Of a stretch of 64,000 bases of DNA, positions 29,509-60,269 are shown piece after piece. Both the position numbers and the translations under genes were made by a program. Source of the DNA: Chitinophagales bacterium (GTDB taxonomy: Bacteria > Bacteroidota > Bacteroidia > Chitinophagales > UBA10324); NCBI GenBank assembly GCA_035638255.1, contig DASRAJ010000029.1, forward strand, positions 54,232 through 118,231, read 5' to 3'. Each line of letters starts with the position of its first letter. Position 1 is the stretch's first letter. The notes under the pieces were generated by a model. The model had not been told where the DNA came from and searched no databases. It saw nothing but the letters and a program-made list of their open reading frames with translations.

Positions 29509-29527
29509 TGTAGTGCAGTTATGAAAA

Positions 29528-32698: not shown

Positions 32699-32718
32699 AT
32701 CACCACTGCACAGTAAAA

Positions 32719-34146: not shown

Positions 34147-34153
34147 TAATTGT

Positions 34154-34978: not shown

Positions 34979-34980
34979 TC

Positions 34981-40807: not shown

Positions 40808-40814
40808 AGTTTGT

Positions 40815-41603
40815 TCAAAAATTTATTTCGGCTTGATGGTCAAAGTTCTTCTTCTTTTGTGTGAGATTGCTTTGCTTACTTACTACACGAAGTTTTGCCA
40901 CTTGGCGATGGTAGACGGAAAATTCTTTTCTTAAAAGTTCGTCCTTGAACTGCTTCCGATATTCGTTATCACCAAAACCGATATATTCAATCTGAGCAGG
41001 GTTAACATTTTTTATTGTGATAAAGTCTTCAACAATTTTGTTGAAAGTCATTGGAGGAGTGTGATCAACCGTTGCCTCAACATACTTGATTTTTACTCTC
41101 ATTTTTTCATCAAGAACACATCCCTCTTTATCAATCGTCTTGTTTTTGTAATTGACCAAATGCTGAATTATTTGATCCGCAATTGCGCTTCGAGCTGATA
41201 GCTTGAATATTTTAATCGGTTCTTGATGAGTATCATTGTCTATGCAATTTAGATAACTGAAATCTGTCTCTGTGCCATCAACTCGTACTATGTGAAAACA
41301 TTTTGTTTTTTGCCATTGCGTATCAGTCCGGACAATAATATCCTTAATTCCTTTTCCAATTTTCTTTTCATATTCAGGATGTCCCTTCAAAAGTTCAGCG
41401 ACAAATTCAAAATCAGACTTCTCAAGAGAATCTTTCACCTTGTACTTATTGAGAATCGCTTTAGTAAAAGTCTTTAGCTCTAGTTTAGTTTTGAAAATCT
41501 TTTCAGCAATTTCAAATGTTGGTCTTTCCTTCATGGAAGAAATTGATTTTATTGCAATCATTTTTGGAATGAGTAAAGTAGAAAATGAATTGAATGTAGC
41601 CAT
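40815..41603 (-). CDS. DUF3223-like protein with possible HNH-like C-terminal region
   Basis: 262 aa. CFHIVRVDGTETDFSYLNCI matches my recollection of the DUF3223 core (D-F-S-Y-x-x-C). The C-terminal VDHTPP...FSVYHRQVAKLRVVSKQSN is loosely HNH-like. It ends 7 nt before the HEPN gene. Confidence 0.4.
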   Translation of the reverse strand: MATFNSFSTLLIPKMIAIKSISSMKERPTFEIAEKIFKTKLELKTFTKAILNKYKVKDSLEKSDFEFVAELLKGHPEYEKKIGKGIKDIIVRTDTQWQKTKCFHIVRVDGTETDFSYLNCIDNDTHQEPIKIFKLSARSAIADQIIQHLVNYKNKTIDKEGCVLDEKMRVKIKYVEATVDHTPPMTFNKIVEDFITIKNVNPAQIEYIGFGDNEYRKQFKDELLRKEFSVYHRQVAKLRVVSKQSNLTQKKKNFDHQAEINF

Positions 41604-42687: not shown

Positions 42688-43029
42688 TCAAAATGCAATT
42701 TTTCTAATTTGCCTGACCTCTATCTTTCCGTCTACCTGGTATATTGGACAGCCCATTGCTAACGAAATCGCGTTTTCTAAATCTGTTGCTTTAATAAAAA
42801 TGAATCCGTTAATATTATTTTCCTTAGTAAAGGAGCTATCAGATATTATTTTATTCTTCCCGCTTATTTGTTTCCCAGTTGGCTCAATCGGTTCACCTAA
42901 TATATAAGCATCATTATCTTTCAAGACTTTTATCCAGTCTAACCACTTTTGCAAATAATCCTGCATCTGTTGCGGAGATAGTTTCTTAAGCACTCCTTCT
43001 TCATGAAAAAAGTAAACGAACTTTTCCAT
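42688..43029 (-). CDS. YciI-like (YCII/DGPF) family protein
   Basis: 113 aa. ...FIFIKATDLENAISLAMGCPIYQVDGKIEVRQI matches the YciI-family C-terminal pattern (igGy.i.a.s.deA...a...P......iEvRpi). Confidence 0.6.
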   Translation of the reverse strand: MEKFVYFFHEEGVLKKLSPQQMQDYLQKWLDWIKVLKDNDAYILGEPIEPTGKQISGKNKIISDSSFTKENNINGFIFIKATDLENAISLAMGCPIYQVDGKIEVRQIRKIAF

Positions 43030-43073
43030 TCTTCAATTCCTAAGAATGCAGAGTGATAAGGTGAATTAATAAA

Positions 43074-43529
43074 TTATTTTATTCTTGTTTTTCCTTTATG
43101 AGGCGTGCCCTTTCCAGTGGTCATCAGAGTATGCAGACTGTTACCTACAAAAAGGTTCCAGCCCTTCTCACAATCTGCATAGCATTCCATCTTGGGGGTT
43201 AGTCCCATGTGAGTCATATCAACCTTTACACCCTCTTTAGTTTTACTTATTTCCCAAACCACTCTCGTATCCTTCCATTCTTTTTTGTCGTTCATTGTGT
43301 GCAGAAAACAGTCTGTTACATACCACACTATTTTTTTACTCTGTTCTAGTTCAGTGATTTTAAATTTTACCCATGTGTCGCGGGAATAGTAGGTAAACAC
43401 ATCATTTTTCTTTTCCGAGTTGCCATCAATGTCTTCACCCCACCATGCTTTGGGATTATTGATATGCTTCATAGCTTCTTCGGGGGTAATTTTTTCAGAA
43501 ACACTAATGTGATAATTTTTCTTTTCCAT
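43074..43529 (-). CDS. SRPBCC (AHSA1/START-like) family protein, paralogue 1
   Basis: 151 aa, paralogous to the next two ORFs (MEKKNY..., W-x-x-D/E-x-x-G-x-S, KIVWxVTD, KEWKDT, the MTHxGL motif and ECYxxCxxGW). Confidence 0.7.
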   Translation of the reverse strand: MEKKNYHISVSEKITPEEAMKHINNPKAWWGEDIDGNSEKKNDVFTYYSRDTWVKFKITELEQSKKIVWYVTDCFLHTMNDKKEWKDTRVVWEISKTKEGVKVDMTHMGLTPKMECYADCEKGWNLFVGNSLHTLMTTGKGTPHKGKTRIK

Positions 43530-43555
43530 TATGATAAATTTCTTTGAATTAAAAT

Positions 43556-44014
43556 TTATTTGGAAGACTTTTGTTTATCTTCAAATGTAATTCCCTTGCC
43601 TTCGCTAATTAATTTGAATAAACTTTCCTTAATATAACTGTCCCAACCTTTTGAACAGTCGTTGTAACATTCTATGCCAGGAACTATCCCAACATGAGTA
43701 AAATTTATTTGTGTTGAATTTTCTTTCTGTGAAATTTCAAAAACCATTTTGGTATCCTTCCATTCTTTTTTATTATTAATCCAATGGAGGTTGCAGTCTG
43801 TAACTAACCAAACAACTTTCTTGGCAGGAATCATTTCAACAATTTTGTGAGTTACAAAAGTTTCACCGAAGCGAACTGTAAAAACATCATTGAGTTTTTG
43901 TGAGTTGCCTTCTACACTTTCTGTCCACCATTTTGAAACAGCAGTGATGCAGTTGAAAACGTCTTTCGGAGATTTTGCGACTTCAATTGTTGTAGTGTAA
44001 TTTTTCTTTTCCAT
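43556..44014 (-). CDS. SRPBCC (AHSA1/START-like) family protein, paralogue 2
   Basis: 152 aa. Its first 23 aa are identical to paralogue 3 (MEKKNYTTTIEVAKSPKDVFNCI). It has the same motif set as paralogue 1. Confidence 0.7.
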   Translation of the reverse strand: MEKKNYTTTIEVAKSPKDVFNCITAVSKWWTESVEGNSQKLNDVFTVRFGETFVTHKIVEMIPAKKVVWLVTDCNLHWINNKKEWKDTKMVFEISQKENSTQINFTHVGIVPGIECYNDCSKGWDSYIKESLFKLISEGKGITFEDKQKSSK

Positions 44015-44036
44015 ATCCTTACTTTGTTTTAATAAT

Positions 44037-44471
44037 TTATATCGCTTTACCAGTGGTTATAAAGTTGAACAGCCAGTCTTTAATGATCATATTCCAGCCC
44101 TGCTCACACTTTGCATAACATTCCTTTTCAGGCACAAGTCCTTCGTGTGTAAAGTGAAGCACGGTTTTATCACCTTTAGTGGTTATCTCAAAAATCATTT
44201 TGGTATTTGTCCATTCATTCTTGTCCTTTTCAATCCAATTTAGTTTACTGTCTGTAACAAGCCACACAACTTTTTTATCAGGCACAACCTCAACAAGTTT
44301 ATGTTTTGAATAATGCCTATCGCCAAACCTGATTATAAATTCATCATTCAGTTTTGTGCTGCTGCCTTCAAATTCTTTTGACCACCATTTTGAAACATTA
44401 TTGATGCAGTTGAAAACGTCTTTCGGAGATTTTGCGACTTCAATTGTTGTAGTGTAATTTTTCTTTTCCAT
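44037..44471 (-). CDS. SRPBCC (AHSA1/START-like) family protein, paralogue 3
   Basis: 144 aa. Its 69-nt 5' end (44,403-44,471) is identical to 43,946-44,014. Confidence 0.7.
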   Translation of the reverse strand: MEKKNYTTTIEVAKSPKDVFNCINNVSKWWSKEFEGSSTKLNDEFIIRFGDRHYSKHKLVEVVPDKKVVWLVTDSKLNWIEKDKNEWTNTKMIFEITTKGDKTVLHFTHEGLVPEKECYAKCEQGWNMIIKDWLFNFITTGKAI

Positions 44472-44531
44472 TTTTATTTAAATTATGTTTAATAATAATT
44501 ATGCACTTTATAGTATAGCGTATTTTTTTGT

Positions 44532-44987
44532 CTATTGAAATCCTTTATTGGCTCCTTCTTTTACCTTGGTAACATTTGGTCCATCTCCCAAGCCCTCATA
44601 AAAGGAGAGGTCCTCATTTATTCCGACTAATCTCCAGCATTGTCCACCTGGGGCTTGAAAGTAGAGGTGAGAGTCTGGCACTTCAAGTTTCGTGACACCG
44701 AAATCAAGAATTTTCTTTGTTAATTCCTCCACATTGTCTGACTTGATTTCAAGCCACATCGCTCTTGCAGTTCGTAAGAACTCGCTTTCATCAGGAACAT
44801 CTCCATAAAGAAAGCCGATGAAGTTTTCTCCCAAACGAAGGAAGTCCCTCTCATCTTCTTCTTTTGTGATTTTGCCTCCAAGGACATCACAATAAAATTT
44901 ACGAATGCTGTCGCGGTCTTTGCGCGGAACTATAACTGACGAATGATTTCCAAAAATTACTTTTGGTGTTATTGCTTTATTTTCCAT
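44532..44987 (-). CDS. VOC/glyoxalase-fold protein
   Basis: 151 aa. IRKFYCDVLGGK...FLYG...LEIKSDNVEEL...L.FGV and HLYFQAPGGQCWRLV fit a paired beta-alpha-beta-beta-beta VOC fold. Confidence 0.55.
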   Translation of the reverse strand: MENKAITPKVIFGNHSSVIVPRKDRDSIRKFYCDVLGGKITKEEDERDFLRLGENFIGFLYGDVPDESEFLRTARAMWLEIKSDNVEELTKKILDFGVTKLEVPDSHLYFQAPGGQCWRLVGINEDLSFYEGLGDGPNVTKVKEGANKGFQ

Positions 44988-45028
44988 TTTGATTTTGTTT
45001 TAATTGTTTATTAAATGTGAATTTGTAA

Positions 45029-45265
45029 TTATTGAGTTTTCCTTTGCGGCAGTATATCCTGCAATTTAATACGACAAGCTTTTATTATGTCTCTTGCAAT
45101 TTCAAAATGATTTTCTTCGCAAGTAGATTCTATTGTAAGTATTTTATCGGGGTGGAACAAATTAATGTGAAGATAGCCGTCAGGAAAAAGAGGTTTAAGA
45201 ATAGCAAGCAATGTATTTGCTTCTTCTTCCGTCTGTATTGTTGTTTTGAATTTTACAATTTTCAT
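45029..45265 (-). CDS. small hypothetical protein
   Basis: 78-aa ORF whose stop region overlaps the upstream gene's end (45,262-45,265). No motif recognised. Confidence 0.35.
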   Translation of the reverse strand: MKIVKFKTTIQTEEEANTLLAILKPLFPDGYLHINLFHPDKILTIESTCEENHFEIARDIIKACRIKLQDILPQRKTQ

Positions 45266-45741
45266 TTGCTGCCCCAGAATTCGTTTTCCTTATTTATATC
45301 TGATGTAAAAACTTTAACGCTTGTTACCAAGCTATCCTTAATCGTAAGGAAGTAAATGTTGGTAACGCTTAAAATTCTTCCTATCGGTTGTACTGCCGTG
45401 ATATTCACAAAACATGAAACATCATTTCCGTTAAAAGCTATTGTCCAGTTTGTATCAATTGAAAAAGTTGTCGCAGAGAGTTCTGAAATTCTGCTGAACA
45501 TCTGAATAATCTCATTTGCATTTTTCTTTATTCCTGAAATGCGATTGCTGCCCGGTTGCGACCATTGAGCATCTGACCTGAATATTTTTTTAAAAGCAAT
45601 AGTGTCTTTTGTTCTAATGGCTTGTAAAAATGTTTTTGTAATAGAAGAATAATTATTTACTAAATCCTTCGCGGTTGATTCTTGAGCATCAGTCGTTCTG
45701 CTTATGATTAGCATTAAAAAAATTAAACTCACTATTTTCAT
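45262..45741 (-). CDS. secreted SnoaL/NTF2-like fold protein
   Basis: 159 aa with a signal peptide (IFLMLIISRTTDAQ). Size and pattern (..FLQAIRTKD..AFKKIF..DAQWSQPG...) are consistent with an NTF2-like/SnoaL cone fold. Confidence 0.45.
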   Translation of the reverse strand: MKIVSLIFLMLIISRTTDAQESTAKDLVNNYSSITKTFLQAIRTKDTIAFKKIFRSDAQWSQPGSNRISGIKKNANEIIQMFSRISELSATTFSIDTNWTIAFNGNDVSCFVNITAVQPIGRILSVTNIYFLTIKDSLVTSVKVFTSDINKENEFWGSK

Positions 45742-45765
45742 TTTACTTTGAGAATTTAAGAACCG

Positions 45766-46137
45766 TTATTCCGGAGAGTGAAAACCAATTTTGTTCCCTT
45801 CGGTATCAATGAAAAGAGCAATAAAGCCAAAATCGCCATTCGCAGCTTTGTGCATTGTGATTTTGCCACCTGCTTTTTCTACTCTTGATAATGGTTTTGA
45901 TAAATCAGCGCCACCACTTAAATATACAAGCGAACCTGTTTTTGACGGCTTATATCCTTTGCCTTCAACGATTGCACCTCCACCACCGGCTTCAACCATT
46001 TCGTGAGGAAACATTCCCCACTTGCCTCTTGGAGTTGGCACTAATTCAATTTTTACTTTGAGAACTGTTTCGTAAAACTTTTTTGCTCTTGCAAAATCTG
46101 TTACAGGAATTTCAATCCATGTGATTGCGTTTGTCAT
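45766..46137 (-). CDS. VOC/glyoxalase family protein
   Basis: 123 aa. ITWIEIPVTDFARAKKFYETVL...GGGAIV...YLS..D......V...GG.I.......GDFGFIALFIDTEGNKIGFHS is the typical PhnB/glyoxalase-like pattern. Confidence 0.7.
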   Translation of the reverse strand: MTNAITWIEIPVTDFARAKKFYETVLKVKIELVPTPRGKWGMFPHEMVEAGGGGAIVEGKGYKPSKTGSLVYLSGGADLSKPLSRVEKAGGKITMHKAANGDFGFIALFIDTEGNKIGFHSPE

Positions 46138-46280
46138 TTTGCTTACTTTATGGTTGTGTCTAAAAACATGGGGACAATATTAGTGTCGCAAAGTGGAAAA
46201 GGAGGTTGGTGCAGGCGACAACCTTGGGGGTGTAATGCGACAACACCCTTTTTTTATATTTGCTTCAAAATTCATTTGCG

Positions 46281-47264
46281 ATGAAGCATATTTCAATTCT
46301 TGTTCCCGAAGGGGAAATGACTTTTAGCAGTGTGATTGGCACTTATGAAGTGTTTACAAAGTTGAATGGCTACCTCGTAAGAATGGGTAAGAAATCTGCT
46401 TTTAAAATTCAGTTGGTAGGAAATAAAAAGAAATTGAGTTTACATGATGGATTGATTTCTGTTCAGCCGAACATTAGTTTTAAGCAAGTGAAGAAAACGG
46501 ATTTGATAATTATTCCTGCTATTCCACCGAATCAAAAAGCGGTGAAAGAGAACAAGGTTTTTGCATCATGGATTGTTGAACAATATAAGCACGGTGCGGA
46601 AGTGGCAAGTATTTGCACGGGTGCTTTTTTATTGGCTTCAACTGGTTTGCTGGATGGAAAAAGTTGTTCAACTCATTGGAATGCTGCTGAATCATTCAGA
46701 CAACTATTTCCGAAAGTGAATTTGGTTACTGAAAAATTGATTACGGATGAACATGGTATTTATACTAATGGCGGTGCGTTTTCTTTTTTAAATCTATTGG
46801 TGCATTTGGTGGAAAAATATTGTGGCAGAGAGGTTGCAATTTACTGTTCAAAGTTTGCAGAAATTGATATTGACAGAAATTGTCAATCACCTTTCAGTAT
46901 TTTTCTTGGTCAGAAAAGCCATGCTGATGAACCTGTGAAAATTGCACAACATTTTATTGAGAATAATGTAACGGAAAAAATATCGGTGGATGATCTTTCA
47001 GAGAAGCTCAGTTTGAGTAAGCGAAATTTTGAAAGGCGTTTTAAAAAAGCAACCGGCAATACACCTATTGACTACGTTCAACGAGCGAAAATCGAATATG
47101 CTAAAAAGAATCTTGAAACGGGCAGAAAGAATGTGAATGATGTTATGTATGAAGTAGGTTATTCTGATCGAAAGGCATTCAGAAATACTTTTAAAAAGAT
47201 TACGGGATTATTGCCGCTTCAATACCGGAATAAGTATAATAAGGAAGCTGCTGTTGTCGGTTAA
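46281..47264 (+). CDS. GlxA-type transcriptional regulator (DJ-1/PfpI domain + AraC-family HTH)
   Basis: The N-terminal DJ-1/PfpI-like domain has the nucleophile-elbow-like SICTGAFLLASTGLLDG. The C-terminal AraC HTH reads LSLSKRNFERRFKKATGNTPIDYVQRAKIEYAKKNLE...VNDVMYEVGYSDRKAFRNTFKKITGLLPLQYR. I chose the internal Met (MKHISILV). Confidence 0.85.
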   Translation: MKHISILVPEGEMTFSSVIGTYEVFTKLNGYLVRMGKKSAFKIQLVGNKKKLSLHDGLISVQPNISFKQVKKTDLIIIPAIPPNQKAVKENKVFASWIVEQYKHGAEVASICTGAFLLASTGLLDGKSCSTHWNAAESFRQLFPKVNLVTEKLITDEHGIYTNGGAFSFLNLLVHLVEKYCGREVAIYCSKFAEIDIDRNCQSPFSIFLGQKSHADEPVKIAQHFIENNVTEKISVDDLSEKLSLSKRNFERRFKKATGNTPIDYVQRAKIEYAKKNLETGRKNVNDVMYEVGYSDRKAFRNTFKKITGLLPLQYRNKYNKEAAVVG

Positions 47265-48375: not shown

Positions 48376-49305
48376 CTACTTTTCATCCTTTTCTTCAGCA
48401 GATTCTTTCTCTTCGAACTTCACGTTCAAGATAAAGTCCGTTGCTTTTTGCGCATGCGAGCTTGCAGAAAGAATGAACTTCTTGTCATTGCGCAATCTCT
48501 CAAGCCATCCTTGAATGTATGATGCATTTCGGTCAAACTCTGTCGTAATAATTCCTGCAAGACATTCCAGGTAGCACGCTCCAATCTCCGCGACAAGTTC
48601 TTCATGCGAGTAACGTTCAAATCCAAACTCTGACATTTGAATGAGAGTACTTCGGTTTAACCGAGTATGATGACCTGTGCTATGCACCAGCTCATGAAAC
48701 AAGGTGGCATAATAACTTTCATCACTCTTGAATGTTTCTTTCTTCGGCATGTTTACGAAATCAGAGAGCGGGTGATAGTATGCTCTGTTTTCCTTATGTC
48801 GGATCAAAGGTTTTTGTGGCATGCGTTCAACAATCTCCTCACAAGCTGGAATGGGATACGCTTGTCGCGTCACCGGCTTGATGAACATTTCAGGAATGTC
48901 GTTGCACTGTGCAACGTTGAAGACTTTGTAATAGCGGAGAAATGGTGTTCGCGCTTTTCCATTTGACTTTCCATTGCCATTTGCTTTTTCGTCGTCATTC
49001 TTTTCAATGTAATTCCAATAGACAACGATGTGAGCCTTCTCATCCTTCCTTACTGAGCCACCAAACTCTTTCAGTTGTTTGTACGTGAGAAAGTAATTTT
49101 CAGAATACCCAAGTGAAGCAAGTAACCAGACATTGATTCCACGATACGCTCTTTTTGAGATCAAGTTTTGTGGAAGTCCGGCTTTGGTCCAGGGTTGTTG
49201 CCAAGGCACCGTACCTTTTTCAAGTTGTGCAATGATTTGTTCCGTGACGATTTCGTACACGTCATGCTTTGCTGCATTCGCAGCAGGAGTTGCTGTGTTG
49301 TTCAT
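48376..49305 (-). CDS. ArdC-like antirestriction protein (DUF1738 ssDNA-binding N-domain + zincin metalloprotease C-domain)
   Basis: 309 aa. GTVPWQQPW...YRGINVWLL is the ArdC/DUF1738 N-terminal pattern. FHELVHSTGH is the HExxH metalloprotease motif. Confidence 0.8.
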   Translation of the reverse strand: MNNTATPAANAAKHDVYEIVTEQIIAQLEKGTVPWQQPWTKAGLPQNLISKRAYRGINVWLLASLGYSENYFLTYKQLKEFGGSVRKDEKAHIVVYWNYIEKNDDEKANGNGKSNGKARTPFLRYYKVFNVAQCNDIPEMFIKPVTRQAYPIPACEEIVERMPQKPLIRHKENRAYYHPLSDFVNMPKKETFKSDESYYATLFHELVHSTGHHTRLNRSTLIQMSEFGFERYSHEELVAEIGACYLECLAGIITTEFDRNASYIQGWLERLRNDKKFILSASSHAQKATDFILNVKFEEKESAEEKDEK

Positions 49306-49521
49306 GATGTGATTGTTTAATTGTGAAAGAATGTTCTTATCACAGTGTGACAGAACATGAATGGAGAAGTAAGGAGGGAGAAATTGCTACTTGTGGCAAG
49401 TCATATTTGCCGTGTGATTTCTGCATTAAAGTTTTCTGCCTGAAACTTTTTTACATTCACTGTTTCAATTTCATGTTGCGGTAATGCTAAACGACATCAT
49501 AATCTTTAAACCAAACATAAA

Positions 49522-49869
49522 ATGAAACCATTTGCTTTTCAATTCAAAGAAATACCGACAAAGGAAAACCTTGACTATTCCCTAATCGAGTACGATGAAC
49601 AATTCAATCTAAGTGTTATCAAAACCACGCGACAACCAGCCATCGACACATTAACGATGGACACCGAGACCTTTACCAAAGCTCAAGGGGAGAGTTCTGA
49701 CTCCGATGACGATGGAATACGAATACTTATGGATACAACAACAGCAACTTATTCTCCTCCGGTTGGGAAGGAGGATTCAGATAGTGACAGCGAAAGAGGG
49801 AATATTCAATCCCTAATGGACACGACGACAATAACTGAATCAAGAGAAGATGTTGACCAAGACAGATAA
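49522..49869 (+). CDS. graspetide (omega-ester RiPP) precursor peptide with three core repeats
   Basis: 115 aa. The leader MKPFAFQFKE resembles the PFFARFL-type leader recognised by microviridin-class ATP-grasp ligases. Three Thr-rich/acid-rich repeats begin at 49,651 (LTMDTETFTKAQGESSDSDDD), 49,723 (ILMDTTTATYSPPVGKEDSDSDSE) and 49,810 (SLMDTTTITESREDVDQD). The gene lies directly upstream of an ATP-grasp gene. Confidence 0.65.
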   Translation: MKPFAFQFKEIPTKENLDYSLIEYDEQFNLSVIKTTRQPAIDTLTMDTETFTKAQGESSDSDDDGIRILMDTTTATYSPPVGKEDSDSDSERGNIQSLMDTTTITESREDVDQDR

Positions 49870-49873
49870 GCGT

Positions 49874-50791
49874 ATGATATTAATTATTACTCATAAGACA
49901 GATTTCACAGCTGACTTTGTAATTAACAAGCTCAATCAAAAAGGAATTAGTTACAAGAGATTTAATTGTGAGGATTTGTTTTTATCTTCTTTCACAGTAA
50001 AGCTCAATGGCTCATTTCAATACTCTATACTTGGAGAGACAAAATACAAGTCTGTATGGTTTAGAAGAACAAAACTTCCTGAAATAAAAAATTTATCCAA
50101 TGAGGAGCGGCTTTATATTTTAAATGAAACAGATAATTTTTTTAAAAACCTTTTTTCATCACTACCTGCTAAGTGGTTAAGTCAACCTAATGCTGTTTAT
50201 TGTGCTGAAAATAAATTTTTGCAACTTAAACTCGCTAAACAAATTGGATTTGTAATCCCCAAAACAATAATTACCAACTCCAAAACTCAATTAAAGGTAT
50301 TTTACGAAGAAAATAATAAGAACATTATCATCAAACCTATCTCACAAACACGAGTTCAGTATAAGGAAAATTCTGAGTTCATCTTTACAAGCAGTGTTTC
50401 GCAAATCCTTATTCAAGAAATCGAGATGTATGATTTAACGCCTTGTATCTTTCAAGAAAATATTCCAAAAGAATATGAGATTAGGGTGACCATTGTAGGC
50501 GAAGAAATATTTGCAGCAGCAGTTTATTCCCAAAAAGATATCGAAACAAAAACTGATTGGAGAAAGAAAAAATTAAAGTTTGTAGAAATGAAATTACCTA
50601 TTGAAATTGAGCAATTATGCTTGCTGTTGGTGAAAAAACTAAATCTTGAATTTGGCGCAATTGACTTAATAAAAACTCCTGACGGTACGTATGTTTTCTT
50701 GGAGATAAATCCTAATGGACAATGGGTATGGATTGAAAGTCAAACAGGTCAAAAGATTTCTGAGGCAATAATTAACTTTCTTTCAAACTAA
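49874..50791 (+). CDS. ATP-grasp peptide maturase (MvdC/MvdD-like macrocyclase)
   Basis: MILIITHKTDFTADFVINKLNQKGISYKRFNCEDL is the typical opening of RiPP ATP-grasp ligases. IIIKP...(K), E-x-R-V-T-I-V-G and GAIDLIKTPDGTYVFLEINPNGQW are ATP-grasp core motifs. I chose the ATG at 49,874, 4 nt after the precursor stop. Confidence 0.75.
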   Translation: MILIITHKTDFTADFVINKLNQKGISYKRFNCEDLFLSSFTVKLNGSFQYSILGETKYKSVWFRRTKLPEIKNLSNEERLYILNETDNFFKNLFSSLPAKWLSQPNAVYCAENKFLQLKLAKQIGFVIPKTIITNSKTQLKVFYEENNKNIIIKPISQTRVQYKENSEFIFTSSVSQILIQEIEMYDLTPCIFQENIPKEYEIRVTIVGEEIFAAAVYSQKDIETKTDWRKKKLKFVEMKLPIEIEQLCLLLVKKLNLEFGAIDLIKTPDGTYVFLEINPNGQWVWIESQTGQKISEAIINFLSN

Positions 50792-50795
50792 AGAA

Positions 50796-51551
50796 ATGAA
50801 AAAAATAGTTAATTATGTCGGACTTTGGATCGAGAAGGATGTTTCAAATCCTTACACTTATAATATAAATGATTACAAAACAATAGATGAAAAGAAAATT
50901 AAAGCACATAAAGGGCTATTAAAAGCACTTGAAAAAAAGGAAGATGACCGGCTAACAATAATTGATTCAAAGACTTCCCAAATCGTAACTTACACGGGAA
51001 TAATTTTTTCAGCGTTAAGTTTATTTATTCCAATTCTTTTGGATAAGATTTCTGACCATAGTTTATTTGCTCGGATAATTTTCATAATAGTTTTGGTTTT
51101 CGCTTTTCTATTTTATGTTTTGACAATCCATAACGCCATTCGCAATTACAACATTGGTAAGTTTCATTATAGTCGGTCAGATCCAAACAATGTTATTAAA
51201 TATCAAGACAAATCTGAGAGTGAATTCACAAATATTGAAATAAAAGATTTGTTATACAGTTACAATCAAAACTCAAAAACAAACGATGAAAAAGCAAATA
51301 ATTTAATTTATGCCTATAGAGCATTTAGGATTGCAAACGCAATGACAGCAATTATAGGTGCTTTAATTTGTAGTTCCTTACTATTTGCAAAACCGAAAGA
51401 GGAAGACATTAATATTAAAAACCCTATACAAATTCAAAATTTTGACTCTACTGCAAAAGCAATTATCAAAACTATAAAAGAGCAAAATAATTTTAATAAA
51501 TTTGATACTACACAACAACAGGACAGCCTGAAGCACTACCTACAACATTAG
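50796..51551 (+). CDS. membrane protein (3-4 TM) of unknown function, downstream of the ATP-grasp gene
   Basis: 251 aa. Hydrophobic segments: IVTYTGIIFSALSLFIPILL, IIFIIVLVFAFLFYVLTI, AMTAIIGALICSSLLFA. It begins 4 nt after the ATP-grasp stop. Confidence 0.5.
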   Translation: MKKIVNYVGLWIEKDVSNPYTYNINDYKTIDEKKIKAHKGLLKALEKKEDDRLTIIDSKTSQIVTYTGIIFSALSLFIPILLDKISDHSLFARIIFIIVLVFAFLFYVLTIHNAIRNYNIGKFHYSRSDPNNVIKYQDKSESEFTNIEIKDLLYSYNQNSKTNDEKANNLIYAYRAFRIANAMTAIIGALICSSLLFAKPKEEDINIKNPIQIQNFDSTAKAIIKTIKEQNNFNKFDTTQQQDSLKHYLQH

Positions 51552-51615
51552 CTTGTCGACAATGCCGAGCACGACGTAGCAAAACTTTTGGTGGAGTTAC
51601 GTGATTTTCGTTAGG

Positions 51616-51641
51616 AAAAAAGCAACCATATGGTTGCTTTT
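51616..51641. terminator. bidirectional hairpin terminator between convergent genes
   Basis: This is a perfect palindrome, aaaaagcaacca-ta-tggttgctttt, with A-run/T-run flanks. Confidence 0.7.
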
Positions 51642-51651
51642 GAGCGATAGA

Positions 51652-52437
51652 TCAAAAAAATTCTAGTTGGGACCCGAGAGGATTTCCTTTGCCCCACTCG
51701 TATTCTTTAGGTGGCTTCCCTTCAGTGATCTCATTCGAATTATTGTTGCTTGTTTTGTTATTCACCAAATGCCATAAGAGCGACTTCTCCTTTTCTTCAA
51801 TGCGAAAGATTCCAAAGGGCAGGAATGAAACAAGGTAACTACCTCTGAATTCATTGGGGAGAAGTGCGTTTGCACACATGACTTCAGAATTGAAAATGCC
51901 GCTCAAGAAAAGATTGAGAGCTGACATCTTTACGCAAGTGAGATCAATATCAATTCCATAGTACTCATGTTTCTTCTCACTTGAATGTGCGGCAACCATA
52001 AGCATTCTGCCACTGCCACAGGCAGGATCAAGAATACGCATGGGTCTTTCTTCAGCAATTTTTTGGGCTTCGCCAATGGCAATGCGTGCCATGAATTCAC
52101 AAATTGGATACGGAGTGAAAAATTGGGAAAGCCCTTGCTTCTGAAGTCGTGCTTCATAGAATTCTCCGAGCACATCAGTACCTTCTTTGCTTAGCATTCG
52201 CTCTGTCATTTCAAGAGTGAGAGTTGCAAACATTTTGGGAAAGTTGTGTCGAAGATCATCATCCTTGTATCTCGCAATTATTTTGAGATACAAATCTTCA
52301 TCGTATGAGAGTCCGGTGAGTACATTTCTTCCGCATGAAGCAACGCTCATGGTGAGAAAATCATCAAAGACAGTTGAGAGATCGTAATGATACTGGAATG
52401 AATCAATGAGAGATGCGAAGGTTTCTTTTGTTTTCAT
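51652..52437 (-). CDS. N6-adenine DNA methyltransferase-like protein (HsdM/N6_Mtase-type N-terminal motifs; catalytic NPPF/Y not evident)
   Basis: 261 aa. It has QFFTP (motif X), ILDPACGSGRMLM (motif I), YGIDID and MSALNLFLSG. The expected (N/D)PP(F/Y) is replaced by SFLPFG, and no target-recognition domain is present. Confidence 0.6.
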   Translation of the reverse strand: MKTKETFASLIDSFQYHYDLSTVFDDFLTMSVASCGRNVLTGLSYDEDLYLKIIARYKDDDLRHNFPKMFATLTLEMTERMLSKEGTDVLGEFYEARLQKQGLSQFFTPYPICEFMARIAIGEAQKIAEERPMRILDPACGSGRMLMVAAHSSEKKHEYYGIDIDLTCVKMSALNLFLSGIFNSEVMCANALLPNEFRGSYLVSFLPFGIFRIEEKEKSLLWHLVNNKTSNNNSNEITEGKPPKEYEWGKGNPLGSQLEFF

Positions 52438-52563
52438 AAAGAACAGTTTTGTCTTTATGAAATCGTAGCATTTTCACAGGTACATTTTCAATGCTATCAA
52501 CCATCCGCTCAAATAGAATTCTGGAAACTTTTCTATCATTGCAATGCCATTTTTGATATTGCC

Positions 52564-53289
52564 ATGAACACATTCAATCTAAATGAACTCGTAATTGAGA
52601 CTGATGATGGAAGTCAAAACTTGGTTGACTATTCAACAAAGAGCAGTCGATCCTCCGGCGATAACGTCGAGGTCATTTTCAAAAATCTTGAATCAAGATT
52701 GATTGAAGTCATAGAGCAATTTGAAGACGGCGCAATATTCGGATGCATTGCATGGCTAACTTCAAAACCAATTTTGAAAGCACTGTCGAAGTGCGATATT
52801 GTACAGATTGTTGTTCAGAAAGAAGACTTTCTAAGACCTGACTTTAACATTAAGAATATCAATACCTGGAAGAGGGATTTACGATTGCTCTATTCACAAT
52901 TGAAGTGCAATATGGAGCGATACCAATTCAGAGAGCCAATCGGTCACTTATCAGTTTGCGGCGATCCTATTGTTCAGGCAATTCGATGTGTCGGAAATCA
53001 CAACTTTGAAAAACAATCTGCATTTCCCAGATCGCACCATAAATTTTTAGTGTTCTGTAAAATGGATGAGAAAGGAAATTATTTTCCTGTTACAGTATGG
53101 ACGGGATCATTCAACTTAACTTTTAATGCCACACAGTCCTTTGAGAATGCTATCATCCTTTCAGATCAATCAGGTGAGAACCAAATTATCAATGCTTATC
53201 TGCAGGAGCATCATCAAATCTTTGCTCTATCAGAGCAATTGAATTGGGAAAGTGAATGGTCTGCACCGGAGTTTCGAATTGGCACTTGA
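52564..53289 (+). CDS. PLD-family (Nuc/BfiI-like) nuclease-like protein
   Basis: 241 aa. SHHKFLVFCK (H-x-K) is followed by TGSFNLTFNA (G-S-x-N), approximating a single HKD motif. Confidence 0.55.
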   Translation: MNTFNLNELVIETDDGSQNLVDYSTKSSRSSGDNVEVIFKNLESRLIEVIEQFEDGAIFGCIAWLTSKPILKALSKCDIVQIVVQKEDFLRPDFNIKNINTWKRDLRLLYSQLKCNMERYQFREPIGHLSVCGDPIVQAIRCVGNHNFEKQSAFPRSHHKFLVFCKMDEKGNYFPVTVWTGSFNLTFNATQSFENAIILSDQSGENQIINAYLQEHHQIFALSEQLNWESEWSAPEFRIGT

Positions 53290-55874: not shown

Positions 55875-56864
55875 TTAAATGCGATCCATCTCAGCCAACT
55901 TACGGTAATGAGCGCCGAGACCCGTTAACTTACAAGCAGTTGAATTAATGGCTGCATAATACATGTGTTCAGCATCAACTGGTACCACAAGTCCATATCG
56001 ATTGCAAAGCTGGAGTTCTTTAAAGATTCGTACGTTGTCTTTATTAACGGGCATATTCCTCAAATGCTCCGGAATGTTTTGCCGATCTGGCTCATAGGAG
56101 GGGTCAAGTTTGAAGTGATCCGTTGAGCTTTTAAAATAGCCTGGCAGTCGCCTTAGTATTTCAAGAGACACTTTAGGAGTTACGGTACGTAGGGTTATGA
56201 AGGTTTGAACATTGGCTTTATATACTGGGCGTTGCTCCCAAGGTCCGAGAGTTTGATCAATGTGTGAGTATATAGAAGCAGGGGTAATCCTCCCACATAT
56301 ATCAGCAGAGGCTCCACTGAGTCCATCAAGCAAAATACCTGTAAAGAGACCATGCCCATTCATTTCCCCTGCAGTGCCTTCCCGATGGCAAGCCGTAAGA
56401 ATTGTCACACCTGTAGCAATAACTGAAACCTGATCATTATTTAATCCAGCAACTTCACCGGCATAGCCAGAATTACAACTATCAAGAATAATCACAGTTG
56501 ATTTAATCCGTGGATAGGCTGCATTGGCAACACTTAAAATTTCCGAAAGAGGTATTCCCCAACTTCCTTTTTTTCCGTCTTGACTTACTATATAACCTGC
56601 ATTGGTTGTCGCGTTCACTATTCCATGACCCGCGAAATAGAGCAGGACTGTTTCAGCATCACCTTTAAAAAGTTCTTCTAGCGCGCTATGAATAACTTCG
56701 CTAGTAACCTCACCATTATCACTGGTAATTAGTTTAACGGAAAAATTGGGAGACCCATCTCCATTCTTCTCAAGTGTATTTGCGACAGCAACAGCATCAT
56801 TTTCACATCCCGTAAGCGGAGATGTGGGATATTTGTCTATACCGATGACCAGTGCCCTTCTCAT
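55875..56864 (-). CDS. caspase-like (peptidase C14) protease
   Basis: MRRALVIGIDKYP...LTGCENDA..., the catalytic His in LLYFAGHG, the catalytic Cys in VIILDSCNSG, and a ~120-aa unassigned C-terminal domain. I chose the Met at 56,864, which shares one base with the upstream TAA (TAATG). Confidence 0.8.
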   Translation of the reverse strand: MRRALVIGIDKYPTSPLTGCENDAVAVANTLEKNGDGSPNFSVKLITSDNGEVTSEVIHSALEELFKGDAETVLLYFAGHGIVNATTNAGYIVSQDGKKGSWGIPLSEILSVANAAYPRIKSTVIILDSCNSGYAGEVAGLNNDQVSVIATGVTILTACHREGTAGEMNGHGLFTGILLDGLSGASADICGRITPASIYSHIDQTLGPWEQRPVYKANVQTFITLRTVTPKVSLEILRRLPGYFKSSTDHFKLDPSYEPDRQNIPEHLRNMPVNKDNVRIFKELQLCNRYGLVVPVDAEHMYYAAINSTACKLTGLGAHYRKLAEMDRI

Positions 56865-57253
56865 TATCTTGAACCTCCAATTAAAGCCTTGAGATTTGCC
56901 CATGTCCAATTATAAATCTTATCAGTGCTTAAGGCGGCATTTGGTTTAACACAAGCTTTGCTCGCTCTTCCCCAAAGTAGGAAGTATGGTTTTCCAAGTT
57001 CTTGCGCTATTTCTAGTTCAGCAGAAACCCCGGTAGCAGTATGTGTTGATTCACCGCACAAAACAATCACCTGGTCACAGTTACCCATACGCCCCTTAAC
57101 TTTTTTCTTCCAATCCCCAGTTAGATGTTCCTTAACAGAGCCATCTGCGAAATCGAAAGGAGAATCTTCCAGCTTGGCTTGTCCTGCGAGCATAACCTTA
57201 ATGTCTGAGTCATTGTCGTAATCAAACGTTATAAAAATTCGTTGTTTTGCCAT
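56864..57253 (-). CDS. TIR-like domain protein (DUF1863 / MTH538 / ThsB-like)
   Basis: 129 aa. RIFITFDYDND...DQVIVLCGESTHTATGVSAELEIAQELGKPYFLLWG matches the flavodoxin-like TIR/DUF1863 pattern. Confidence 0.7.
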   Translation of the reverse strand: MAKQRIFITFDYDNDSDIKVMLAGQAKLEDSPFDFADGSVKEHLTGDWKKKVKGRMGNCDQVIVLCGESTHTATGVSAELEIAQELGKPYFLLWGRASKACVKPNAALSTDKIYNWTWANLKALIGGSR

Positions 57254-57795: not shown

Positions 57796-58464
57796 CTATT
57801 TTACTATAGGTCTTTTAATAACTCCAACAACCTTCCCACTTATGCTGAAATCATCAGAAGGATGTAGGTGAATGGGATCATAGTTAAATGAAGAATCAGC
57901 CATGAGCACTATCTGTCCATTCTCTCGATCATCGATTAACCGTTTGATTGTTGCCTTGCTGTCAATTATCGCCAGAACAATATTTTTGTTGGTGATGTCT
58001 GTATTGTTCGAATCAACAATAACGAAATCACCATCTTCAATTCGCTTGCCTGCTACTTCTGCACGATTCATTGACGACCCATCAGCTTTTATTGCGTAAA
58101 GCCCTGAAGGTTTTGATCTACCAACGAGTTTGCTGGAGACACGCAAGAAACCTTGAAAGTTTTCTTCAGCAAAAATTGTTGCCGGACCACAATTCGCTGT
58201 TCCGAGAATAGGTATTGAAAAAATCTTCGCACTCATTTCAAGCAATCCTTTTGCCCATCCCGGTGTTGGAGCAGAACGCTCCATTATACCTTTGGCTCGA
58301 TCAATGCTAATGAAGCCCTTCTTCTGAAGTTGAGTCAGATGATGCTTAATCTTTTGCGGTGATTCCTTTGGCATTTCTATCGCACTCGCCATTTCTCGGA
58401 GACTCATCTTTGCTAAGTTCTCCTTCTTTGATAGTGCCAACAGCTTTTCTTGTATGGGATGCAT
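57796..58464 (-). CDS. LexA-like repressor (winged-helix DNA-binding domain + S24 self-cleaving peptidase)
   Basis: 222 aa. MSLREMASAI...IKHHLTQLQKKGFI is LexA-type wHTH. It also has an NCGPATIFAEE cleavage-site-like region, the Ser in ADGSSMN and the Lys in TIKRL. Confidence 0.8.
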   Translation of the reverse strand: MHPIQEKLLALSKKENLAKMSLREMASAIEMPKESPQKIKHHLTQLQKKGFISIDRAKGIMERSAPTPGWAKGLLEMSAKIFSIPILGTANCGPATIFAEENFQGFLRVSSKLVGRSKPSGLYAIKADGSSMNRAEVAGKRIEDGDFVIVDSNNTDITNKNIVLAIIDSKATIKRLIDDRENGQIVLMADSSFNYDPIHLHPSDDFSISGKVVGVIKRPIVK

Positions 58465-58565: not shown

Positions 58566-60269
58566 CTATGGTAGATTATTATTATCGTATGGTAGTACAG
58601 GAATGCTAATCGAAGGATCATTTCTTGTTATAAACACGGTTCGAACATCCTTCACGGTGGTGCACCACCGTTGACGAATTGAATTCAAAACTTCATTTCG
58701 TTCTTCTACAGAAACATTTTTTTTCAGTTCGATCTCTCGATATTCCGCTTCAAGTGTTGGGTAGTCTTTCTCTATGGGAATTAGCCATTCCGCGGCTTCA
58801 ATGTTGAGTATTTTGTCTTTTACATTATAGTTCGAGCCAAGTGAGGAAAGTATCTCTCGCTTATCGTTTAGGGTTCCTGCTACGAATCCCTGACGTGCAT
58901 ACGTTGCGAAGTGAAAGGTTTTTTCAGTGAGTTCAACATATCGTTCTGAATGATCATCGGTCTCTTCTAATTGCTGTTTAAACTTCGTAATCGCGCTTAG
59001 GAGCGAGTTTCGTTCTTTGAGGTATGTTTCTTCATCTACAAGCTCCTTATAGCGCATACGTGTGAGATTATCGAGTTCCTTCTGTGTTTCAAGAAGGGAA
59101 GCTTGCCGCATATCAAGGATTGTTGTTTTGTCCTGAACTCCCTTACCGTTTTCTATTTCTAGCACCTCAAGTGCCCACTCAAAAAACTCAGGCATGATCG
59201 TATATTTCTCAAGCATACTTTCGATTTGCTCTTCAAGACTTCCAAGCGTGAGCGGCTTTGCATTCTTGCACACAGTACCTTTCTTCTTATGCGTGCAGTG
59301 GTAATACACGTAGGTTTTTAATTCCCCGGTAGTTTTCACCAACTTCAATTTTTCACTTGCCGTGTACATTGATCCGCATTCACCACAGTGAATCAGTCCG
59401 GTGTACGCAAACTCATGTTTCTGTTTGCGGGGTTTGCCTTTTCGTCCCAGGAGAATTTGCACATGATCATATTCATCAAGCGTAATCATGGGACCGTGTT
59501 TACCATTGTAAAACTTACCAGCCCATTCAAACATGCCAGTGTAAAAAATGTTGGAGAAGATTTTATACATCAGACTCGTTGAAATTTCTTTGTCCCCGTA
59601 TGAGTTGTGTCTAGGTGTTCTAAACCCCCATTCTGTATTGGCAATGTTGCGGATTGTTTCGACTGTGTAATTACCTGTGAGCATCATATCCCACATTCTG
59701 CGAACCAATGGAAATCTTTTCTTATCAACCACAATTGTCTTATCTGCTTTGTCATTCACGTATCCAATCGGCGGCAGTGCCGGTAGCCACCCTCGTTCAG
59801 CTTTGCCTTCCATGCCACGTCTGCAATTCTTCCGAAGGTCAATGATGAATTGATTTGCCATGCTGCTTTCGACATTGAAAAGAAGCACGTTGTCATCAGG
59901 TAAATGTCTGCGATCAATAGTTTGAATACATTTCAAAACTCCTTGCTGGAGAAGCCAACTCAAGGTTCCACTGTCAATTGGATTACGGGAAAGACGATTG
60001 ATTTGCCAACAGAGAATACCACCGGCTTCACCCTTCTCAATTCTTTTTATCATCTCTGAAAACACTGTACGATTGTACGGCTTCTTGGCTGATTTTGCCT
60101 CTGTCAAAATCTCCTTTATTTCCAAGCCCAAATTCGCCGCAAGATCTTTGAGACGGCTAATCTGATCTTCGATGGATTGGACTTGTCGGTCTTCACTCTC
60201 CAAAGACTTTCGGGCATAGAGAAAGTATTTGATTTTTTCGGTTGTGCCATTGATCATACGTGAGTGCAA
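58566..60269 (-). CDS. second large serine recombinase
   Basis: 567 aa. YFLYARKSLESEDRQVQSIEDQ is the catalytic Ser region. It also has a recombinase domain, a zinc ribbon (HCGECGSMY...YYHCTHKKKGTVC) and a C-terminal coiled coil. Confidence 0.9.
   Translation of the reverse strand: MHSRMINGTTEKIKYFLYARKSLESEDRQVQSIEDQISRLKDLAANLGLEIKEILTEAKSAKKPYNRTVFSEMIKRIEKGEAGGILCWQINRLSRNPIDSGTLSWLLQQGVLKCIQTIDRRHLPDDNVLLFNVESSMANQFIIDLRKNCRRGMEGKAERGWLPALPPIGYVNDKADKTIVVDKKRFPLVRRMWDMMLTGNYTVETIRNIANTEWGFRTPRHNSYGDKEISTSLMYKIFSNIFYTGMFEWAGKFYNGKHGPMITLDEYDHVQILLGRKGKPRKQKHEFAYTGLIHCGECGSMYTASEKLKLVKTTGELKTYVYYHCTHKKKGTVCKNAKPLTLGSLEEQIESMLEKYTIMPEFFEWALEVLEIENGKGVQDKTTILDMRQASLLETQKELDNLTRMRYKELVDEETYLKERNSLLSAITKFKQQLEETDDHSERYVELTEKTFHFATYARQGFVAGTLNDKREILSSLGSNYNVKDKILNIEAAEWLIPIEKDYPTLEAEYREIELKKNVSVEERNEVLNSIRQRWCTTVKDVRTVFITRNDPSISIPVLPYDNNNLP

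Follow-up and report, generated by a model that had tools for sequence, protein, structure and literature searches.

The three genes at 49522-51551 (+ strand) of the window, the whole 64-kb stretch of DNA that was analysed, encode a precursor peptide of 115 aa, an ATP-grasp ligase of 305 aa and a three-transmembrane (three-TM) protein of 251 aa with gaps of 4 nt between the genes, and the cassette very probably belongs to the group 6 type of trivalent graspetides on the thuringinin branch, a placement made by homology to catalogued members. By homology and analogy, each core of the precursor would carry three esters, most likely nested. The cassette is of an already catalogued graspetide type, its sequence being new and its kind known. 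The group to which it brings a further, unannotated member has been listed in catalogues, but little of its chemistry has been studied; in the source record, a Chitinophagales MAG, each of the three proteins is called "hypothetical".

Gene anatomy and conservation of the cassette

Features of the locus, in order of position:

49306..49521, no strand: intergenic, presumed promoter region (by position only), between the divergent ArdC gene (-) and the precursor gene (+)
49522..49869, +: graspetide precursor gene, 115 aa (open reading frame; leader at aa 1-45, then three cores)
49657..49707, +: core 1, M46-D62, MD-T48-E-T50-F-T52-KAQG-E57-SS-D60-S-D62, loop of 4 residues
49729..49788, +: core 2, M70-D89, MD-T72-T-T74-A-T76-YSPPVGK-E84-DS-D87-S-D89, loop of 7 residues
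49816..49863, +: core 3, M99-D114, MD-T101-T-T103-I-T105-ESR-E109-DV-D112-Q-D114, loop of 3 residues
49874..50791, +: graspetide ATP-grasp macrocyclase, 305 aa (profile, PDB and homologue matches)
50796..51551, +: conserved three-TM protein, 251 aa, candidate export, immunity or docking partner (hydropathy and homologues)
51618..51641, no strand: hairpin with a 10-bp stem, candidate bidirectional terminator, between the convergent membrane gene and N6-methylase gene

The TAA stop codon of the precursor gene occupies 49867-49869 and the ligase ATG lies at 49874, while the ligase stop codon occupies 50789-50791 and the membrane gene ATG lies at 50796; every element of the three-gene layout with 4-nt gaps was found where the initial annotation had placed it. 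Its reading of these genes, in which a gene for a multi-core precursor is combined with a RiPP-type ATP-grasp gene and a membrane gene to form a small graspetide (omega-ester RiPP) cluster, was likewise supported by profiles, homologues and synteny. An alternative in-frame ATG for the ligase at 49850 overlaps the precursor gene; as the ligase homologues are 304-309 aa long and align with the protein read from 49874 starting at its first residue, the start at 49874 was preferred.

The same trio, in identical order, was found at 12 further distinct places, mostly in Chitinophagaceae, with flanks that were unrelated from place to place, and the cultured relative Flavihumibacter profundi KCTC 62290 has the same cassette. 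The membrane gene was third at every other place examined, save for two: at one the contig ends within the cassette, and at the other the copy is truncated. Among the genes of the cassette neither a leader peptidase nor a recognised transporter was found, and the precursor leader has no GG site. A scan of 49306-49521 for sigma-70-type promoters, which does not cover Bacteroidota-type promoters, gave no convincing site. Downstream, the RNA fold of 51600-51660 had an energy of -19.7 kcal/mol (z = -4.5 relative to shuffles), but the hairpin at 51618-51641 was not called by a consensus terminator scan and its terminator role is therefore put forward as putative.

The precursor begins with MKPFAFQF and had 29 homologues, some with four cores; no family was matched by it in Pfam and NCBIfam searches. 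Alignment of these homologues showed conservation in the leader of P3, F8, P12, D18, S20, I22-E23-Y24, N29-L30, T36 and P39-A40-I41. Within the leader motif P3-F-A-F-Q-F8, both P3 and F8 were conserved in at least 90% of the 29, and the leader fits P-h-h-x(1,2)-h, the motif given for graspetide leaders by Makarova et al. (PMC8939145).

Behind the leader stand three copies of a shared core pattern, T-x-T-x-T-(x3-7)-E-x-x-D-x-D, in the repeats T-M-D-T-E-T-F-T...E-S-S-D-S-D (aa 45-62), L-M-D-T-T-T-A-T...E-D-S-D-S-D (aa 69-89) and L-M-D-T-T-T-I-T...E-D-V-D-Q-D (aa 98-114). Three repeats of L-M-D-T-(T/E)-T-x-T had been described initially; the number stands, but the first repeat reads T-M-D in place of L-M-D. 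When the protein's own composition was shuffled 200,000 times and scanned for T.T.T-x(2-9)-[ED]..D.[DE], none of the shuffles held three copies, as the real precursor does, and 10 held two. Tandem Repeats Finder found no tandem repeat in the precursor DNA, which indicates that the core repeats are old and have been maintained at the protein level.

The threonine and acidic positions were kept across the 29 homologous precursors. In core 1, T48, T50, T52, E57, D60 and D62 were invariant; in core 2, T72, T74 and T76 were invariant and E84, D87 and D89 at least 90% conserved; and in core 3, T101, T103, T105, E109, D112 and D114 were all at least 90% conserved. The nine Thr precede the nine Glu/Asp core by core, as in graspetides, for which it is a rule that the donor precedes the acceptor (PMC7823629). 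The 7-residue loop of core 2 was unique, with motif scan and alignment giving 4 residues or fewer at core 2 in all 29 homologues.

Ligase family, graspetide group and ring topology

The ligase matched the NCBIfam maturase models TIGR04187, TIGR04185 and TIGR04184 with E values from 2.9e-65 to 1.7e-60, compared with 3.3e-19 for RimK and 2e-4 for GshB, and the grasp-with-spasm model reached 1e-37 against 3e-65 for the best maturase model. As its score of 220 bits falls under the curated cut-offs of all three maturase models (350 bits and above), the ligase is a relative of these families that lies outside their exact equivalogs. The MvdD pre-ATP-grasp domain of Pfam (PF21068) scored above its cut-off. 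In the PDB there were six matches at E<=1e-3, all of them graspetide ligases (MdnB at 5.3e-42, MdnC, AMdnB, CdnC, 9bou and PsnB), whereas GshB, at E 0.2, and RimK-like chains all had E>=0.19. By these matches the enzyme, for which more than 1400 homologues were found, is a graspetide-type ligase and does not group with RimK or glutathione-synthetase-type enzymes.

By blastp, the precursor matched proteins of Pedobacter sp. Hv1 (KQC00388.1; 48% identity, E 1.6e-30), Acidobacteria bacterium Ga0074141 (47%, E 4.8e-28), Chryseobacterium greenlandense (44%, E 1.9e-20) and Arenibacter algicola (33%, E 6e-12). Homologues from these four organisms are contained in precursor cluster 13 (cluster13.afa) of Makarova et al. 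2022, where the last three matches bear the label gr_06 and the Pedobacter protein does not, and the ligases partnering all four precursors are assigned there to Branch_Thuringinin. The pattern TxTxT-x(3-7)-ExxDxD is common to our precursor and every gr_06-labelled homologue examined; since the Pedobacter homologue also has it without the label, the published group 6 motif may be stricter than this pattern. The ligase itself was 64% identical to a 308-aa ligase (P0088) that apparently shares its contig with a precursor (P0028) near-identical to the gr_06 Acidobacteria precursor. Group 6, including OEP6-1, is reportedly to be found in Lee et al. 2020 in JACS. The esters of OEP6-1 are three in number and nested (PMC12291112), and it is on analogy with this peptide that the predicted nesting rests.

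In the initial annotation the ring topology was put forward as possibly new. The core is indeed unlike that of microviridin, but it is of the group 6 type, its homologues sit in cluster 13 with the gr_06 label and the topology of OEP6-1 has been reported, so the suggestion was not upheld. We consider it unlikely that the rings of this cassette differ from those of OEP6-1 by being crossed or staggered, or by numbering fewer than three in some cores, especially in cores 2 and 3, in which case the topology would be new after all. The loops do differ between the cores (4, 7 and 3 residues), that of core 2 having no equal among the 29 homologues, and Makarova et al. (PMC8939145) point to overlap among the motifs of groups 3-6 and to the difficulty of predicting connectivity from motifs. 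Against this, the spacing of donors and acceptors is identical to that of the gr_06-labelled members, the variation is confined to loop length while the positions of the residues to be cross-linked are constant, and co-evolution of ligase and core, as described by Kim and co-workers, leads to one topology within a group.

The preferred assignment, a nested group 6 type, is consistent with the further likeness of the cassette to group 6 and cluster 13 systems. These systems, found mainly in Bacteroidota, rely on one ATP-grasp ligase, which is about 305 aa long; their precursors, of about 110-120 aa, share the leader of ours (P-h-h-x-F, I/L-E/K-Y-D, L-N-L-S/N-V and P-A-I/V) and have tandem TxTxT...ExxDxD cores; what sets our cassette apart is the core 2 loop of 7 residues instead of 4 or fewer, and the recombinase-bounded island.

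Thuringinin is reportedly the group 3 graspetide of Roh et al. 2019. The thuringinin-type cluster on the Bacillus thuringiensis plasmid pHS18-2 combines a trivalent precursor, a single ATP-grasp ligase and a membrane protein, as here, and its ligase is a full-length homologue of ours (31% identity, E 2e-44), although it has an extra N-terminal bPH domain; Makarova et al. assign the ligases of the thuringinin and cluster 13 types to one ATP-grasp branch. Its gene order is reversed relative to our cassette and the two membrane proteins are not detectably homologous; an hhalign comparison of our membrane protein family with the Bacillus one, which is 361 aa long, gave a probability of 0.2%. The precursors are 22% identical (E 0.001), and the thuringinin core differs (e.g. 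TTxxTxTIENxDPDE), with two esters per repeat (PMC12291112) as opposed to three donor-acceptor pairs per core. With our motif missing from the Bacillus precursor and three pairs instead of two, a group 3 core type was rejected.

The comparators named in the initial annotation, plesiocin and chryseoviridin, proved not to be the closest systems, the thuringinin branch being closer. Plesiocin (group 2) has the core TTxxxxEE, two esters and the leader motif LFIEDL; TTxxxxEE is absent from our precursor and PsnB was matched by the ligase only at E 1e-6, and this type was set aside. Microviridins (group 1) have the core TxKxPSDx(D/E)(D/E), a Lys lactam, a PFFARFL leader and usually two ligases, and among them chryseoviridin, from Bacteroidota, has several cores. 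Both share with our cassette the ATP-grasp chemistry and the principle of leader-helix recognition, and of all solved structures those of the group 1 enzymes MdnB, MdnC and CdnC come closest to the ligase (E 5e-42 to 2e-35). A group 1 type was nevertheless rejected, as none of the three cores has a conserved Lys or PSD, there is one ligase gene and the leader is different.

The membrane protein and the mobile island

Three hydrophobic segments were found in the membrane protein, at about residues 62-84, 90-112 and 179-199, in agreement with the 3-4 TM segments proposed initially. The protein had 26 homologues with 33 invariant positions, and searches of Pfam (with the single sequence and with the 26 members), NCBIfam and PADLOC gave no family above threshold, the sub-threshold, TM-driven matches being to DUF6594, MFS_1, CD20 and PycTM. 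An identity as PycTM/SLATT was considered and rejected: the PADLOC PycTM match had an E value of 0.0096 and 13.8 bits with no single stretch passing, a Pfam scan covering the 26 members at E<=0.1 gave no PycTM match, and a weak precomputed Pfam PycTM match was present in two homologues only, one of them from Lacibacter. The AF2 model was all-helical (pLDDT 77) and had no match in the PDB at E<=0.001, the best being generic long-helix proteins with a TM-score of about 0.24.

The cassette lies between an ArdC gene, which adjoins it, and methylase/PLD-like genes on a low-GC island at 27.9-60.3 kb (GC 0.32-0.40, as against 0.40-0.49 outside) that is bounded by two large serine recombinases and carries HEPN, AAA_15 and caspase/CHAT genes elsewhere. 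A tRNA scan of the 64-kb window found none, and hence no tRNA attachment site. Of the initial description of an unusual mobile setting, the recombinase-bounded low-GC island beside ArdC was confirmed, but "unusual" was not, because graspetide-type ligases were found on 52 plasmid records, Porphyromonas ICEs carry graspetide clusters (bioRxiv 10.64898/2026.08.04.741601), and the same cassette occurs in plain chromosomal settings as well, adjoining the mraZ-ftsL-murE cluster in Lacibacter and beside metabolic genes. The thuringinin-type plasmid described above is conjugative. The grasp-with-SPASM clusters on the ICEs of Porphyromonas gingivalis are, as here, mobile Bacteroidota cargo beside defence and anti-defence genes (same preprint), but they are of another subtype, with GwsG/GwsS, in which the partner is of the radical-SAM/SPASM kind and secretion is by a type I system. 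The occurrences of the precursor-ligase-membrane trio show it to be strictly conserved as a unit and to move between chromosomes and mobile elements.

We regard it as highly improbable that mobile islands retain the cassette for a role of its product in conflict between element, host and phage, with a nine-ester trivalent hairpin peptide whose 7-residue loop would confer a new target specificity (blocking, for example, a phage protease or a defence that depends on a protease) and a three-TM protein acting as a PycTM/SLATT-like effector or as a dedicated exporter of a new kind. Slightly lower still is the probability we give to the cassette being, in the main, a conflict module of the island instead of a pathway for a secreted natural product, the cross-linked acidic peptide or a PycTM/SLATT-like three-TM effector serving in phage defence, anti-defence or maintenance of the element. 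The ArdC and methylase/PLD-like flanks, the HEPN, AAA_15 and caspase/CHAT genes and the sub-threshold PycTM matches (PADLOC, and Pfam in Lacibacter) point that way, as do the lack of an exporter and peptidase in the cassette and one homologous cassette that adjoins a large helicase gene and a gene with a weak TraG-family ATPase match. However, the PycTM likeness was under every threshold and absent from the scan of the 26 members, PADLOC matched neither the ligase nor the precursor, which argues against a known defence system, and the occurrence of the cassette in housekeeping neighbourhoods shows that it is not tied to defence islands.

A housekeeping ligase of RimK or glutathione-synthetase type next to a chance or unrelated small acidic ORF, as might be read from homologues named "glutathione synthase/RimK-type ligase-like ATP-grasp enzyme" in some sources and from the Pfam RimK domain match at 1e-7, is effectively refuted by RiPP maturase models that outscore RimK by about 45 orders of magnitude, by PDB relatives that are solely graspetide ligases, and by a small ORF that keeps its Thr and acid pattern and is always directly upstream of the ligase.

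Proposed maturation and significance

For the preferred group 6 type, homology and analogy suggest the following route. The 115-aa precursor would be synthesised on the ribosome, and its leader of roughly 45 residues (P-F-A-F-Q-F, D-x-S-L-I-E-Y-D, L-N-L-S-V and P-A-I) would dock on the single ATP-grasp ligase, which would use ATP to phosphorylate side-chain carboxylates, namely one Glu and two Asp per core. Attack by the three upstream Thr hydroxyls would then give three omega-ester (lactone) links per core, up to nine in all, with a predicted mass change of -162 Da. If they follow OEP6-1, as is most likely, these links are nested and the peptide forms three stem-loop hairpins in tandem, whose loops have 4, 7 and 3 residues; the predicted pairs are T52-E57, T50-D60 and T48-D62 in core 1 and likewise in cores 2 and 3. 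To our knowledge, all characterised graspetides are protease inhibitors, and the product here would most likely be one too. The three-TM protein, conserved along with the other two genes, probably acts on the modified peptide at the membrane, in export, docking or self-protection, a role in export or immunity being a guess on our part. In this genome the whole cassette is cargo of the serine-recombinase-bounded low-GC island.

In clusters of the plesiocin, thuringinin and group 6 types no part is understood less well than the conserved third gene, and its 33 invariant positions, taken with the absence of a family or fold match in the searches above, make the membrane protein a reasonable target for studying graspetide release without a peptidase or transporter. 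Loops of 3, 4 and 7 residues within one precursor also offer a natural test of how far the ligase tolerates differences in ring size, which is of use in peptide engineering. The local peculiarities of the cassette are this 7-residue loop of core 2 and its uncharacterised membrane partner.

The cassette and its ligase

Three ORFs, all on the + strand and in the same direction, occupy 49522-51551 and are followed by a hairpin:

49522, + strand: start of the precursor ORF, 115 aa, MKPFAFQFKEIPTKENLDYSLIEYDEQFNLSVIKTTRQPAIDTLTMDTETFTKAQGESSDSDDDGIRILMDTTTATYSPPVGKEDSDSDSERGNIQSLMDTTTITESREDVDQDR
49874, + strand: ATG of the ligase gene, 305 aa, 4 nt past the precursor stop
50796-51551, + strand: membrane protein gene, starting 4 nt past the ligase stop
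51618-51641: hairpin (10-bp stem, -19.7 kcal/mol, z -4.5) between the membrane gene and a convergent methylase gene

An alternative ligase ATG at 49850 would give an overlap with the precursor; ligase homologues are 304-309 aa long and their alignment begins at residue 1 of the 49874 start. The initial annotation had correctly recognised a graspetide cassette here, which family assignments, conserved residues and synteny show to be genuine. Its description was accurate overall, save that the first repeat starts T-M-D and not L-M-D, and its membrane protein of 3-4 TM segments was found to have three hydrophobic segments (62-84, 90-112 and 179-199).

The ligase matched the NCBIfam ATP-grasp ribosomal peptide maturase model TIGR04187 (E 2.9e-65), TIGR04185 (MvdC, E 1.8e-63) and TIGR04184 (MvdD, E 1.7e-60), with lesser matches to the RimK family (E 3.3e-19) and glutathione synthase (E 2e-4) models, and an MvdD pre-ATP-grasp domain was found over the Pfam cut-off. 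As the scores were under the curated cut-offs of all three maturase equivalogs, the ligase is a relative of MvdC and MvdD outside those exact families. Grouping with RimK or GshB, which the initial annotation took as the result that would count against it, was not seen, since all matches at E<=1e-3 among all PDB sequences were graspetide ligases (MdnB 5ig8, 5.3e-42; MdnC 5ig9; AMdnB 7m4s; CdnC 7mgv; 9bou; PsnB 7drm), with glutathione synthetase and a RimK-like ligase at E 0.2-1.1 only.

Precursor cores and graspetide group

Three copies of the pattern T.T.T-x(2-9)-[ED]..D.[DE] are present in the precursor; shuffling its own residues 200,000 times never gave three copies and gave two in 10 shuffles. 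A search of a 5.8-billion-protein collection gave 29 precursor relatives, and conservation of the Thr and acid positions, on which the initial reading had been made to depend, was clear in their alignment: T48, T50, T52, E57, D60, D62, T72, T74 and T76 are invariant, and E84, D87, D89, T101, T103, T105, E109, D112 and D114 are at least 90% conserved, while the residues between them vary freely. A few homologues have four cores. No DNA-level tandem repeat was found in the precursor gene, which argues that the repeats are ancient and kept by selection at the protein level. Core 2 (49729-49788) has a loop of 7 residues, YSPPVGK, between its Thr and acid triads, where motif scan and alignment gave 4 residues or fewer at this position in all the other 28 homologues. 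The Lacibacter precursor (L003 8001-8267) was called at only 88 aa with two cores, and the query match to it and to the Ferruginibacter precursor (L016 5001-5216) is limited to residues 1-71; a naturally shorter form or a frameshift may account for this.

In established graspetide enzymology, known from work on PsnB and MdnC, the leader binds and activates the ligase, which phosphorylates side-chain carboxylates with ATP for attack by Thr hydroxyls, giving esters. By this enzymology the leader here would bind the ligase, core carboxylates would be phosphorylated and Thr esters formed, with three predicted per core and nine in total (-162 Da). Nested pairs T52-E57, T50-D60 and T48-D62, with their equivalents in cores 2 and 3, would fold the product into three hairpins in tandem, their loops 4, 7 and 3 residues long. 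Because characterised graspetides are all protease inhibitors, protease inhibition is the probable activity. The membrane protein may serve in export, docking or immunity; the cassette contains no leader peptidase, GG site or transporter.

The core is indeed unlike that of microviridin, as first proposed, but the accompanying suggestion of a new ring topology is not supported, as direct homologues of the precursor with the same cores are already catalogued in precursor cluster 13 of the supplement of Makarova et al. 2022 (PMC8939145). These include Pedobacter sp. Hv1 (KQC00388.1), Acidobacteria bacterium Ga0074141, Chryseobacterium greenlandense (KUJ56721.1) and Arenibacter algicola TG409, to which the window precursor is 48% (E 1.6e-30), 47%, 44% and 33% identical, respectively, with TxTxT...ExxDxD cores common to all. 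Their adjacent ligases are listed in Table S1 of that study under 'Branch_Thuringinin', cluster 13, as already belonging to the sets of Iyer 2009 and Lee 2020, and most carry the label gr_06, which denotes a core that fits the group-6 motif of Lee et al. 2020 perfectly. Cluster 13 is described there as having several group 3, 5 or 6 core repeats and a common leader (PMC8939145), and for OEP6-1, a group-6 peptide that has been characterised, a stem-loop held by three nested esters is described (PMC12291112). The close Pedobacter homologue has these cores but no gr_06 label, so the group-6 motif as published may demand more than the pattern applied here. The cassette thus most likely adds a member to a known, catalogued graspetide group and is probably neither a new topology nor a new system; its sole locally distinctive features are the core 2 loop and the strictly co-conserved membrane partner.

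The membrane partner and the trio in other genomes

The cassette was compared with 12 other distinct places, on contigs reached via precursor homologues and a GTDB species genome scan. Precursor, ligase and membrane protein keep the same order and tight spacing with two exceptions, one copy being cut by a contig end and another having its third gene truncated beside an IS200-type transposase. Hosts are mostly Chitinophagaceae (Lacibacter, Ferruginibacter, Flavihumibacter profundi KCTC 62290 and Chitinophagaceae MAGs). The flanking genes are unrelated from place to place: the mraZ-ftsL-murE division cluster adjoins the cassette in Lacibacter, and elsewhere there are metabolic genes, CPBP/Rce1-like proteases nearby or, in one case, an upstream gene with a weak TraG-family ATPase match and downstream methylase-like and large helicase genes. 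As order is kept while flanks differ, the trio is a self-contained unit that moves from one context to another.

The CPBP/Rce1-like intramembrane protease genes lie within a few kb of the cassette at three loci (L001 5212-6129; L002 3086-4003; L004 2601-3266 and 15464-16315), representing two contexts as L002 has the gene order of L001, and an aspartic-protease-like gene is directly upstream in L004. These neighbours, absent from the window, are possible leader-processing or immunity partners.

The 26 membrane protein homologues share 33 invariant positions, and no family scored above threshold in Pfam (single protein and 26 members), NCBIfam or PADLOC. The only recurring hint was sub-threshold similarity over the TM hairpin to PycTM, a Pycsar membrane effector, seen in the window protein (50796-51551; PADLOC E 0.0096) and two homologues including L003 9229-9954 (precomputed Pfam PF18967); 20 of the 26 members had weak DUF6594 matches over the same helix-plus-TM-hairpin region. 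The AF2 model (pLDDT 77) is all-helical and had no fold match in the PDB. The positive-inside rule would place the Lys-rich conserved N-terminal helix and the loop at 113-178 on the cytoplasmic side, where they could contact the ligase or modified precursor. Peptide transport was suggested for the thuringinin-specific 'cluster 18' membrane protein by Makarova et al. (PMC8939145). In the thuringinin-type cluster on the conjugative Bacillus thuringiensis plasmid pHS18-2, the ligase is homologous to ours (31% identity, E 2e-44), whereas the 361-aa neighbour protein has no detectable relation to the window membrane protein.

The surrounding low-GC island

The cassette is inside a low-GC region of about 30 kb (GC 0.32-0.40, compared with 0.40-0.49 on its left) that two recombinases flank:

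27895-29562, - strand: large serine recombinase, left bracket
48376-49305: ArdC
57796-58464: LexA-like S24 repressor
58566-60269, - strand: large serine recombinase, right bracket

PolB-exonuclease-like, short N6-methylase, PLD-like, HEPN LA2681, AAA_15 ATPase, radical-SAM and caspase/CHAT proteins are also encoded, and no tRNA genes were found in the window. Low GC, recombinases and ArdC bear out the mobile region of the initial annotation. Its view of this setting as unusual gave way to parallels: graspetide-type ligases were found on 52 plasmid records (13 conjugative or mobilizable), the pHS18-2 cluster is likewise on a mobile element, and graspetide clusters are reported as ICE cargo in Porphyromonas gingivalis (2026 preprint, bioRxiv 10.64898/2026.08.04.741601).

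Where the island's GC is lowest (0.32), a co-directional six-gene operon (29874-38516, +) encodes two unknowns (390 and 551 aa), an AAA_15/AbiEii-like ATPase, an unknown of 274 aa, a HATPase_c_3 (GHKL) protein and a 659-aa radical-SAM protein, and is a candidate multi-gene defence system. At 39272-41603 (-), a TPR-HEPN protein (LA2681-like HEPN, E 3e-69) and, after it, a DUF3223 protein may form a toxin or defence pair of two genes. A 344-aa caspase-like (Peptidase_C14/CHAT) protein with an overlapping 129-aa ORF upstream (55875-57253, -) is a candidate protease-type defence gene that shares its island with the predicted protease-inhibitor cassette. About six small ORFs of 113-159 aa (42688-46137, -), one matching the AHSA1/SRPBCC family, adjoin an AraC-type regulator with a DJ-1/PfpI domain (46260-47264, +). 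At 51652-53289, a 261-aa N6-adenine methylase-like protein, encoded convergently with the membrane gene, precedes a 241-aa PLD-like (HKD) protein scoring under the Pfam cut-off; the methylase may be a fragment or orphan, as it matched type I and mad2-like methylase models over only part of the models' length.
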